Source: a virus (Duplodnaviria; Heunggongvirae; Uroviricota; Caudoviricetes). Taken from it: a stretch of DNA of 11,948 nucleotides. Of this stretch, positions 1,291 through 4,200 are shown piece by piece. The position numbers were made by a program. Each line of letters opens with the position of its first letter. The stretch's first letter is position 1. The DNA is taken from IMG/VR virus record IMGVR_UViG_2645727867_000006. One strand, written 5' to 3'.

Positions 1291-4200
1291 TAAACAGGGG
1301 GTAAAACGTGAGCAGAGCAATGAACAAACTGAGCGATACCTTGCTAAGGAAACTTCATGGTAAGCCAGCGGAGAAAAACACGTTTTATAGCGATGGCGGA
1401 AATCTGAGCGTGAAATATTTAACATCAGGGAAATTAACCTGGTATTTCACTTACAGGGCAGGAACGGGAAGAGAGACACGACCGGAACGTATTAAGCTGG
1501 GAAATTATCCTGATCTGAGCCTGAAAGCAGCCAGGGAAAAAGCCGCCCAGTGTCGCGCATGGCTGGCGGAGGGGAAAAATCCACGCCATGAGATGAATTA
1601 CGCCGTACAGGAAGCGTTAAAGCCGGTAACGGTTGGCGATGCGCTCACCTACTGGCTTGAGTCGTACGTAAAGGAAAACCGCGTGGATTATATCGCCCTG
1701 AAAAGGCGACTTAATAATCACGTAATACAGCACATTGGTGCTATGCCGCTGGATAAATGCGAGCTACGGCACTGGCTGGCCTGTTTTGACCAGGTGGCAA
1801 AGCGAACGCCTGTTACTGCCGGATTCGTGCTACAGGCGTGCAAACAGGCGCTTAAGTTTTGCCGTAGGCGGCGCTATGCAATCAGCAACGTTCTGGACGA
1901 TCTGAACGTGGCGGACGTTGGGAAAAAACCGGATATAAGCGAACGTGTCTTAAGCACCAAAGAACTGGGCGAGTTATTGCAGGCGCTGGATAAAAAAATA
2001 TTTTCTCCTTACTACGTCGCGTTAATCCGCCTCCTGATTGTCTTCGGAGCCAGGACGGTAGAACTGAGGTTATCGGAGATCAGCGAGTGGGATTTTACCG
2101 AAATGCTATGGACCGTTCCGAAGGAGCACAGCAAAACGAAGGTTGCAATATTCCGGCCCATACCGGAAGCGATCCTGCCGTTCGTCACGCGGCTGGTGGA
2201 GCAGAACAGGCACACGGGCTTATTACTGGGGGAAGTGAAACAGGAGGCTAGCGTATCGCAGTACGGCAGATTAGCGCACAGGAGGCTAAAACACCCTCAA
2301 TGGTCATTGCATGACATCCGGCGCACCTTTACAACGATGCTGAATGATTTGGGCGTGGACCCTCACGTCGTGGAGCAGCTTACAGGTCATCAGATGCCAG
2401 GGATGCAACGAGTCTATAACCACTCCCGTTATCTCGATGCGAAACGTGATGCGCTGGATATGTGGACGGAGCGGTTAGGAATACTGGCGGGAACACATGA
2501 AAACGTAACCACGCTACCAGTAACCAGAATAAAATAATTTTTTTCGTGTTTTTTCAGTATGCGCATACTGGATAAGTGCACAGATACAACGTGAAACAAT
2601 GTGCAACAACGTGACACAATCACGAACAAGAGGCCAAAAAGAATACAGATTTATAAGTTACTGATTTTTAATGCTCAGCTGGTTTTTTATACATTAGTGA
2701 ATTACGCGTTAAAGCGTGCGAAAAAAGGCATAAAACAAGATTTTATGCCTTTGTATTAACATGAATTTAAATGATTTTATCCTGATTATTCCTCTTTCTG
2801 TAAACCATGCGACACCAACATTTGCCAACTCTGAATCATCCTGACACAATCAGACACATCCCAACGCAATAGAACACGAAATAACTCTTTAAGAAACGAA
2901 AGGGGGCAATAGTGTTAAGCACTGATCGGTTTATACGTGAAAAAGAATGCGAAAAGCTAACAGGCCTTAGCCGCTCATGCCGCTACCGCCTGGAAAAGGC
3001 CGGACAATTCCCATCACGTCGTAAACTTGGCGGGCGTTCTGTTGGCTGGTCTTTATCTGAGGTTTTGGCCTGGAAGGATAGCTGCAAGGCAGTTCACTAA
3101 AAAGACTGGCGGCACACAGTCGCCACACATCCACTAATACAGAGATATAACCATGAAGATTGAATATGCGCCCGAACGTGGGCGGGGATTCGTTCGCCCT
3201 GGTGAAACTGAAAAACAACAAAATTGGGGTTTTTCAGGCATAAAAAAAGCGGCCCCGATATGGAGCCGCCTTTCTGAACAATTAACCTGCTGCGCCTTAT
3301 GTGTATGTGATCCCAAACATAAGCACGGGAATGATAGCCGCTATCAGGCTGGTGGGCAATGTAATTACCCTTTGGGTTCTATGCCGCGCCGCTTTAGTTC
3401 TGCCCTGGCTAATTCTTTAAACCAGTTACCAAGGGTTAGACCGTCAGAAGTTGCAGCTTCATTTACTTGTTGGCGTAGCTCTTTACTGATTCTGATTTGG
3501 AAGGTTGGAGACCATCCCTCACCGCGTGGCGATTTATCGCGCTTTAATGTTGACATGTACGTACGTAACTCCTATTATCATTTCCGTTACGTACGTACAA
3601 TATCAGTAGGTACAGTAAAAAGCAAAGCCCCGCAAGTGTCGTTACCACTCGCAGGGCTTCTAACCAACAACGTAAACGAGGAGCCGTTATGGTTGCCGTA
3701 AATCATATACCACACCTTGTACACACACAAACGGCCTTTGTGTGGCGTTTTCTGGCCCTGAATATCGGAGAAAAAAACCAGTTGATCGCCAGTGTCGAAA
3801 ATAGCTATGATTCCCGCGCACCTCATAAAACGGGTGCCGGGATTGGCGTCCTGGGCAAAACTGAAGCGCATAACACGCGCCCCGCGTGTTTTTTTGTGCC
3901 GCATAGTCACACCTTATCAATGGTGGGCTGTACGGGGGCGGAGCAATCCGCGCCGGTTTCTTCAGTGTCCGGTTACGCCAACCCTGTACAGTCCGCCACC
4001 AGCGAAATTGGCGTTTCCGGTGGCGGTTATCTTAACCACACTGAGGAGGCTGCCAACATGGCTACTATCCCTACCCTTGTACATTCTCAAACCGCCTTTC
4101 TCTGGCGCTTTATCATCTTTGGCGCGTCAGAACATCAAATCATCCACGTAACCGCCTGGACGGAACGCGAAGCGCGTAGCCGTTGCCCGTCAGGTTGTGT

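Follow-up and report, generated by a model that had tools for sequence, protein, structure and literature searches.

Gene organization of the island

The DNA analysed here is a stretch of 11,948 nucleotides, the Caudoviricetes record IMGVR_UViG_2645727867_000006 of IMG/VR (referred to below as the window). Our subject is a small gene on its minus strand, which codes for a 63-aa protein of the ribbon-helix-helix (RHH) type, together with an inverted repeat at the start of this gene and a hairpin upstream of it. The window matches the chromosomes of E. coli 94-3024 and O104:H21 strain CFSAN002236 with 100% identity and contains an island of ~11 kb, which splits the carnitine transporter gene caiT in E. 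coli 94-3024. Genes for a tyrosine integrase and AlpA are followed by the 63-aa gene on the opposite strand and by a rightward operon composed of an 'ash family' pseudogene call, an Icd-like gene, two hypothetical genes, DUF4222, and a DUF927 primase. The last genes of the island, after this operon, encode PerC, the major capsid protein, a decoration protein, and the small terminase (TerS).

Since this organization (int and alpA, replication, packaging) is that of Gram-negative phage-inducible chromosomal islands (PICIs), the island is, judged by its gene content, a phage satellite of the EcCICFT073 type. The succession of int and alpA, a primase module, and a packaging module was found in an island of about the size expected for this class (~10–15 kb), and the leader of the rightward operon was 96% identical to that of the model element EcCICFT073. 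In these satellites, AlpA is the demonstrated inducer and activator of EcCICFT073 genes, and the global repressor of Gram-negative PICIs was called 'unclear' (PMC6092414). As AlpA is the known inducer in this satellite class (PMC6092414), a repressor encoded beside it would be at most one layer of control.

The 63-aa protein and its gene

Translation of the open reading frame (ORF) at 3365–3556 (minus strand) gave MSTLKRDKSPRGEGWSPTFQIRISKELRQQVNEAATSDGLTLGNWFKELARAELKRRGIEPKG, annotated as 'hypothetical protein' (WP_032149715.1). The family is small, with 22 clusters in a collection of 5.8 billion proteins, nearly all of 62–64 aa and from Enterobacterales. The N-terminus MS(T/I)IKRDKSPKG was conserved among the 22 homologues, which supports the annotated start. 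Scanning one genome per species yielded 71 loci encoding relatives of the protein.

The predicted architecture consists of a beta-strand (PTFQIRI, residues 16–22) and two helices (residues 24–36 and 41–55). The top profile match in the PDB was Arc of phage P22, aligned over nearly the whole length of Arc at a sub-threshold E-value of 0.11; residues T17, Q19, and R21 were placed opposite the beta-strand residues Q9, N11, and R13 of Arc. The AlphaFold2 (AF2) model, with a mean predicted local distance difference test score (pLDDT) of 76.5, had an extended N-terminal segment followed by two helices, and the N-terminal strand is expected to form only in a dimer. The top Foldseek matches of this model were all Arc (template modelling score 0.85, root-mean-square deviation 1.1 Å), followed by the RHH domains of PutA, AmrZ, CopG, and ParG. 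The matches to Pfam, NCBIfam, and PDB profiles were all sub-threshold, yet they point the same way. Because Arc tops both the profile and the structure matches, we assign to the protein, on modelling and sequence grounds, an RHH fold with Arc as its closest solved relative. The RHH protein of the initial annotation was thus borne out by the Arc profile, the AF2 model, and the Foldseek matches.

The gene is followed by an intrinsic terminator of its own (3241–3275, minus strand), GGCGGCUCC-AUAUC-GGGGCCGC and then U7, with a folding energy of −26.4 kcal/mol and a z-score of −3.4. No toxin-like ORF was found between the stop codon and this terminator. With its own terminator, the repressor gene is monocistronic.

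These results bear on the possibility that the protein is the antitoxin of a type II toxin–antitoxin pair, the palindrome at its start being an autoregulatory operator with no role in the life cycle of the satellite. Source annotations of the homologues do say HicB antitoxin, there is a weak Pfam HicB match (E 0.0024), and many RHH proteins, as the Foldseek list illustrates, are antitoxins. However, the Pfam match is below the cut-off and confined to the RHH part, and the 63-aa protein is an RHH domain only, with no room for the N-terminal domain of HicB. The gene is monocistronic, with neither a HicA-like nor any other toxin ORF co-transcribed, no toxin partner was found in the 71 loci, and the boxes described below lie not only on the promoter of the gene itself but also on the divergent one. 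The label 'HicB antitoxin' on the relatives is unsupported because of the strong terminator and the lack of a co-transcribed partner, and we regard an antitoxin function as very improbable.

Inverted repeat and divergent promoters

At the start of the repressor gene, two arms of 14 nt, TGTACGTACGTAAC (proximal, 3556–3569) and GTTACGTACGTACA (distal, 3586–3599), are 100% complementary and separated by a gap of 16 nt, exactly as the initial annotation had described them. The window contains just one further perfect 14-nt inverted repeat with a gap of up to 40 nt, the terminator at 8039/8064. None of this kind was found in 300 dinucleotide-preserving shuffles, and ~0.002 are expected analytically; the repeat is far beyond chance. 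Each arm had also been called palindromic. The whole 14-mer is not a palindrome, but it contains palindromes of 8 bp (GTACGTAC) and 10 bp (TACGTACGTA). In the whole window, the 8-bp core GTACGTAC is confined to 3557 and 3591, i.e., once in each arm (3557–3564 and 3591–3598).

Two facing promoters were predicted over the repeat. The rightward promoter P_R (3550–3578, plus strand) consists of TTGACA (3550–3555), a spacer of 17 nt, and TATTAT (3573–3578), with a predicted start at ~3585. In the consensus scan, it matched 11 of 12 consensus positions. Its −35 element lies inside the repressor ORF and coincides with codons 1–3 (ATG TCA ACA on the other strand). The predicted repressor promoter (3597–3625, minus strand) has an extended −10 element TGaTATTGT (3605–3597; TG at 3605–3604, hexamer at 3602–3597), a weak −35 element TTGCTT (3625–3620), and a predicted start at ~3590. 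The Shine-Dalgarno sequence of the repressor gene, AGGAG (3573–3569), is within the 16-nt gap of the repeat.

The proximal arm is situated in the spacer between −35 and −10 of P_R and abuts the repressor ATG, and the core of the distal arm covers approximately +6 to +13 of P_R and overlies the −10 edge and the start site of the repressor's own predicted promoter. Repeated subsites on a promoter, as expected for an RHH repressor, were therefore found in the form of two GTACGTAC cores flanking the −10 element of P_R. The operator had been placed between the divergent genes. It does lie on their promoters, but it is not strictly intergenic, since base 3556 is the A of the repressor ATG.

Conservation of the boxes and exchange of the cassette

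The 76 bp upstream of the repressor gene were examined in 56 of the loci (L003–L058). Exact GTACGTAC cores were found twice in 35 and once in 14 of these 56. In total, there were 84 occurrences in the 56 upstream segments vs. 4 in the remaining 326.8 kb, a ~1600-fold enrichment. In the 35 loci with two cores, the spacing was 33–35 bp and the proximal core abutted the start codon. About 50 loci from many enterobacterial genera kept the layout with TTGACA in codons 1–3 and TAnnnT at 17–18 nt. The motif TGnTAnnGT, overlapping the distal core by 2 nt, was also conserved across loci while the intervening sequence drifted.

This pattern is relevant to the suggestion that the inverted repeat acts as an RNA hairpin, a 14-bp stem in read-through transcripts which sequesters the Shine-Dalgarno sequence and AUG of the repressor gene. 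The arms are perfectly complementary, the loop holds AGGAG, the stem ends at the A of the AUG, and read-through is plausible because some of the homologous hairpins upstream have no U-tail. Conservation of the cores across genera with a drifting spacer is nevertheless the signature of protein recognition and not of pairing. Both predicted starts fall between the arms, so that neither primary transcript would hold both of them, and the equivalent boxes of EcCICFT073 are direct repeats, unable to pair. We give such a hairpin a low probability as the explanation of the repeat; the two roles, RNA hairpin and protein operator, are not mutually exclusive.

The boxes varied together with the beta-strand of the protein. 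The strand TFQIRI was paired with GTACGTAC, IFSVRL with GTATGGAC/GTCCATAC (L006), MFNVRI with GTATAGAC/GTCTATAC (L040), PFHMRI with GTGTACAC/GTGTGCAC (L031, L032), and AFQIRI with GTGYGTAC (the Klebsiella phage locus L078). Box variants thus appear to track the residues which in Arc contact bases, a correlation that is suggestive rather than strict.

The whole regulatory segment was found exchanged in a sister island (L002), ~98% identical to the window on both flanks of a differing segment that corresponds to ~3355–3609 of the window. In L002, this segment encodes a 59-aa RHH-like protein of the YlcI/YnfO family with the same predicted strand-helix-helix layout and carries three GTGTAAGACA(C) boxes, one after a TTGACG −35 element and one inverted after the −10. 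GTGTAAGACAC boxes around the −10 and the YlcI/YnfO-type gene were seen at 2436–2640 of that locus. BLASTP of the window repressor vs. the L002 protein gave no alignment, and their kinship would rest on the sub-threshold NCBIfam match and the shared predicted architecture. EcCICFT073 (L077, 2880–3080) has a third allele, a YlcI/YnfO-family gene whose two GTGGGCCACACC boxes flank the −10 at the same two places. In view of these alleles, the 254-bp stretch at ~3355–3608 is probably an exchangeable regulatory cassette, composed of the Arc-like protein and its two operator sites; we hold this jointly with the interpretation of the region as a whole and to the same degree.

The alleles also allow the small protein to be distinguished from other candidates for binding the boxes, such as AlpA or a helper-phage or host protein, in which case the small protein would do something else. 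AlpA is a demonstrated activator of EcCICFT073 genes (PMC6092414). The AlpA proteins of the window and L002, however, are identical (WP_000953271.1) while the boxes differ, hence the boxes follow the small protein and not AlpA. More generally, the boxes change whenever the small protein changes, with alpA nearly constant, and differences between the boxes go along with those in the beta-strand residues of the small protein. Recognition of the boxes by another factor is accordingly given only a slight probability.

Two further groups of relatives were noted. Homologues from Pantoea and Erwinia (L059–L073, strand AFQLRI) had neither GTACGTAC boxes nor the antisense RNA described below and were set aside as paralogues in a context of their own. 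Their immediate upstream neighbors are the OmrA/B sRNA genes, whose terminator apparently accounts for the hairpin found before them. In the record of Klebsiella phage P12620-1 (L078, 106.5 kb), the whole module was present at 2362–2692: an AFQIRI RHH protein, the GTGYGTACCTAT inverted repeat, an antisense RNA scoring 68 bits, and an Icd-like gene, with the int-alpA RNA motif nearby. The locus may represent a satellite that resides within the phage record or was assembled together with it.

A predicted antisense RNA of the SymR family

Upstream of the repressor promoter, the minus strand contains a hairpin (3660–3624) of 15 pairs, 8 of them G-C, with a loop of 7 nt, followed by GCTTTTTACT. It is more stable on the minus than on the plus strand (−25.1 vs. 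−15.9 kcal/mol), where two G-U pairs become A-C mismatches. The same asymmetry was seen in all 48 distinct sequences compared, in which the hairpin was more stable on the repressor's strand (mean −17.6 vs. −12.7 kcal/mol) and G-U pairs numbered 76 on that strand vs. 14 on the other.

The hairpin was found to be part of a larger unit. When 34 loci were aligned upstream of the repressor gene, the repressor's strand showed a conserved succession of a TAnAnT −10 element, 7 nt, AGCCAU (complementary to the ATG GC of the divergent gene), a small helix with the anti-Shine-Dalgarno sequence in its loop, the linker GUGGUUAG, the long hairpin, and usually a U-run. In the window, this unit corresponds to a predicted RNA of 78 nt (3617–3694, minus strand), which consists of a 5′ helix with the anti-Shine-Dalgarno loop GCUCCUC, the linker UUGGUUAG, the 15-bp terminator at 3660–3624, and a U-run. 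It has a folding energy of −35.4 kcal/mol and a z-score of −5.5. The 5′ sequence AACCAU is the complement of the ATG at 3689–3691, and the RNA is fully complementary to the Shine-Dalgarno sequence and ATG of the first rightward ORF.

The predicted promoter of the RNA (3702–3730, minus strand) lies inside the target ORF and comprises TTGTGT (3730–3725), 17 nt, TATGAT (3707–3702), and 7 nt to the start at 3694, which is 5 nt inside the ORF starting at 3689. A TAnAnT −10 element was present at this position in all aligned loci. The geometry matches that of symR of E. coli K-12 (TAGAAT, 7 nt, AGUCAU), in which the −10 was shown experimentally to drive SymR (PMC1891008). K-12 SymR is a 77-nt RNA with a promoter inside symE, which represses SymE synthesis (PMC1891008).

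We built a covariance model (R1) from a hand-annotated seed of eight loci of other genera, with the window and E. coli left out. R1 matched the window at 3617–3694 (minus strand) with 49.9 bits (E ~4e-9), L002 with 51.7 bits, and EcCICFT073 with 67.3 bits. It also found the annotated symR of K-12 (30.4 bits, E 5.5e-5), the match covering 2836–2916 vs. 2836–2912 in the annotation. Among 47 R1 hits, 93.2% of cells were paired vs. 35–47% in slid controls, and compensatory changes on both sides were found in 20 of 24 pairs, in all three helices; none of 500 shuffles reached the observed values. RNAalifold on a plain MAFFT alignment recovered the outer 5′ helix alone, because the terminators are too variable in length to be aligned by sequence.

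The Rfam scan of the whole window and a permissive scan of 3590–3730 gave no described family for the hairpin region. Matches to mir-8510, R1162 antisense RNA (opposite strand, 15.6 bits), and sodF were at chance level and were rejected. The sub-threshold R1162 plasmid antisense RNA match was located at 3625–3696 (+) in the window, and another one of 24 bits was seen at 2849–2921 (−) of L048; both are on the strand opposite to the SymR-like RNA and probably reflect either a coincidence of structure or a problem with the strand in that family. In L048, where the target is SymE-like, the Rfam symR model matched over its full length, sub-threshold (28.1 bits, E 0.0011).

The initial annotation had left two options for the hairpin and T-run, an insulator of the repressor promoter or the terminator of an antisense transcript. 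As a mere insulating terminator, it would shield the repressor promoter from leftward read-through and imply no functional antisense RNA, and its placement just upstream of that promoter would suit this role. Such a role would not account for compensatory changes in all three helices or for the conservation of the whole 78-nt unit, in which the 5′ helix with its anti-Shine-Dalgarno loop, the linker GUGGUUAG, and a constant distance of 7 nt between −10 and start are kept as well, and SymR, to which the unit is homologous, has been proven a regulator by experiment (PMC1891008). Insulation as the sole function is given a low probability. The second option was borne out computationally by R1, the covariation, and the strand asymmetry, and on comparative sequence grounds the hairpin with its T-run is the terminator of a SymR-family cis-antisense RNA.

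DNA related to this RNA was detected in at least 776 of 5426 complete E. coli genomes. Among the matches listed, it was found under an 'Icd-like' or 'ash' coding sequence or under no feature, and never with an RNA annotation.

The target gene and the region downstream

The target of the antisense RNA is the start of the first rightward, Icd-like ORF, with the Shine-Dalgarno sequence GAGGAG at 3679–3684 and the ATG at 3689–3691 (plus strand). In an O157 island (L075), the same start opens an intact Icd-like gene of 65 aa. In the window (3689–4249) and L002, the gene runs in frame after 27 codons into an inserted block. On the plus strand, this interrupted region contains an isrK-like RNA with a terminator (3818–3894; Rfam 66 bits), a C4 antisense RNA (3916–4003; Rfam 77.6 bits), both above the gathering threshold, and a second icd-like copy (4058–4249; NCBIfam phage_ICD_like match). 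A repeat, 3706–3751/4066–4111, was observed here, and a frame of 186 codons stays open across the isrK and C4 RNA genes. By analogy with the P4 P_LL transcripts, one may speculate that this open frame lets translation of the P_R transcript override the isrK terminator. A promoter for isrK was predicted at 3782–3811 (plus strand; TTGATC, 18 nt, TATGAT), 7 nt upstream of the start of the isrK match at 3818, and the isrK/C4/icd part may be transcribed independently of the repressor-controlled promoter. Judged from the sequence, the operon would then have three stacked controls, namely the repressor, the antisense RNA, and the C4/isrK system, of which only C4 and isrK are mentioned in this zone by an earlier study (PMC10111431). 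C4 and isrK were ruled out as parts of the cassette, being absent in L075–L078 and in all 40 genome loci scanned, where the antisense RNA is present.

In other genera, the head composed of repressor, box, and antisense RNA was joined to other cargo (L048, L049, L053, L041, L044, L055, L040, and L046; ~2300–3000 in each). The cargo genes code for SymE-like proteins (L048, L049, and L053) and for proteins of 176 aa and 243–252 aa of no known function. The cargo proteins share only the N-termini MA..ST.T, that is, the stretch which encodes the promoter of the antisense RNA.

Other features of the island

In the int-alpA intergenic region, short direct repeats of the ACAACGTGA and GACACAAT types were present (2575–2625 and 2835–2875), which may be arm-type integrase sites or AlpA sites. 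The Rfam int-alpA RNA motif was detected in L003, L052, and L078 and not in the window. The PerC-family gene (7736–7984) gave a weak match to ANR, the AraC negative regulator (E 0.001), which recalls a proposal that LEE is repressed by a PerC-like protein encoded on a PICI (PMC11773190). Two tandem terminators follow this gene (8003–8077), the second of which, AAAAAAAGCCCGATAAG...CTTATCGGGCTTTT (the 8039/8064 repeat), looks bidirectional. An AT-rich stretch at 8130–8215, just upstream of the capsid and packaging operon, has repeated TGCAAT/ATTGCA and ATCATAA motifs and may be a regulator-binding region for late-gene activation.

Proposed mechanism and its significance

We propose as the probable interpretation that the replication operon is held by a lock of two layers: an Arc-like repressor with a two-part operator on P_R and an antisense RNA of the SymR family. 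One RHH dimer would bind each GTACGTAC core, a stoichiometry which is a guess. Occupancy of the proximal core would fill the spacer next to the −35 element of P_R, and occupancy of the distal core would cover ~+6 to +13 of P_R together with the −10 edge and start of the repressor promoter. As a result, P_R, and with it the operon of the Icd-like, DUF4222, and DUF927-primase genes, would be shut and the repressor's own synthesis limited. Because P_R and the repressor promoter face each other with predicted starts ~5 bp apart, competition for RNA polymerase is expected as well. The second layer would be the 78-nt antisense RNA, which looks constitutive and is encoded on the same strand as the repressor, immediately downstream of the cassette. 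Acting as SymR does on symE, it would block translation of the Icd-like gene and destabilize P_R transcripts that escape the repressor. DNA binding, stoichiometry, repression, start sites, and expression of the antisense RNA are here inferred from sequence, and the same applies to autoregulation and 'control of island induction', both put forward in the initial annotation.

Several observations weigh against this interpretation. For the protein, the Pfam HicB match reached 18.2 bits vs. a curated cut-off of 21 (E 0.0024) and the NCBIfam YlcI_YnfO_N match 20.7 bits vs. 30. For the operator, the spacing of the cores, 34 bp from center to center, is unusual compared with the adjacent subsites normal for RHH operators, and the repressor promoter was read by eye and is below the threshold of the consensus scan. 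The correlation between strand and box is only suggestive because L051 and L057 keep TFQIRI with GTATGGAC or GTATGAAC as the proximal core, and because L039, L043, and L050 retain the distal core alone. For the antisense RNA, the Rfam symR model (RF01809, gathering threshold 61 bits) had no match in the window at E-values up to 10, the Pectobacterium copies of the hairpin have no U-tail, and the covariation counts rest on a model-fitted alignment, which favors the structure. Finally, given the internal isrK promoter, P_R may not be the sole entry point of the operon.

In the open-access literature on SymR in satellites, the function of YlcI/YnfO, and repressors of capsid-forming or classical Gram-negative PICIs, we found no description of these small proteins as PICI regulators or of SymR relatives in satellites; small genes at this position were listed as accessory genes or antitoxins (PMC13612085). 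No single mechanism proposed here is new in kind, and the value lies in the combination and the setting. The analysis supplies a concrete repressor candidate: a 63-aa protein, two 8-bp boxes, a defined promoter, natural specificity variants, and an equivalent cassette in EcCICFT073. The SymR family, moreover, is by this analysis not confined to symE but reaches much further, with members in the leaders of Icd-like genes of satellites and of at least one phage. A broader view, which we put forward tentatively and consider somewhat doubtful, is that the small RHH proteins annotated as 'hypothetical', 'HicB antitoxin', or 'YlcI/YnfO' could be the missing master repressors of Gram-negative PICIs and act as exchangeable immunity cassettes. 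Together with the SymR-family RNA, they would make up a portable two-layer lock, which includes the first ~10 codons with the RNA promoter and which evolution would have fused to several cargo genes of potential toxicity (Icd-like, SymE-like, and others). If this were true, derepression by a helper-phage factor would set the specificity between satellite and helper, as Stl does in SaPIs.

Comparison with known systems

Among known regulators, the closest to the window protein are Arc and Mnt of the P22 immI region, likewise small RHH proteins (~53–63 aa), Arc being its best profile and structure match. The Arc operator is located within the strong promoter Pant, which overlaps a weak promoter of the opposite direction. 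Arc differs from the window protein in sequence (~22% identity, E 0.11). It binds as a tetramer to two adjacent subsites ~11 bp apart, whereas the cores in the window are self-palindromic 8-bp elements, 34 bp apart, flanking the −10. Its target is an antirepressor, whereas the putative targets of the window repressor are the Icd-like and replication genes of a satellite.

The proposed combination of a small autoregulated RHH repressor with a short antisense RNA on the translation-initiation region of a replication operon resembles CopG and RNA II of plasmid pMV158. In pMV158, the CopG gene is co-transcribed with rep, and CopG recognizes one element at the −35, 13 bp long and pseudo-symmetric. 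In the window, by contrast, the repressor gene is divergent from its target operon; a sequence relationship to the pMV158 system is absent.

For the second layer, the nearest relative is the SymE–SymR pair of K-12 (RF01809; PMC1891008). In both cases, a cis-antisense RNA of 77–78 nt has its promoter in the target ORF and its 5′ end a few nucleotides past the start codon, and both RNAs consist of a 5′ helix and a terminator joined by a linker (GUGAUUAG/GUGGUUAG). The divergence of the window RNA puts it beyond the reach of the Rfam model, and the target in the window is Icd-like instead of SymE, a toxin of the AbrB fold. The transcriptional repressors differ too: an RHH protein with GTACGTAC boxes in the window vs. 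LexA for symE, the LexA box being readable at the K-12 locus.

With Stl and Rpr of Gram-positive PICIs and SaPIs (PMC6092414), the window shares a repressor gene that is divergent from the excision/replication operon and next to int. Stl proteins, however, are large helix-turn-helix proteins inactivated by helper-phage proteins (PMC6092414), and the window repressor is a small RHH protein. The window finally resembles P1 immI (c4-icd-ant) and the CI RNA of P4 in having C4, isrK, and an icd-like gene and in the predicted control of an icd-led operon by RNA. C4 and CI arise by processing of the sense transcript and target sites in it, whereas the antisense RNA of the window appears to be a separate gene on the other strand, and RNAs of its type are also present in islands without C4 and isrK (L075, L076, L077, and L078).

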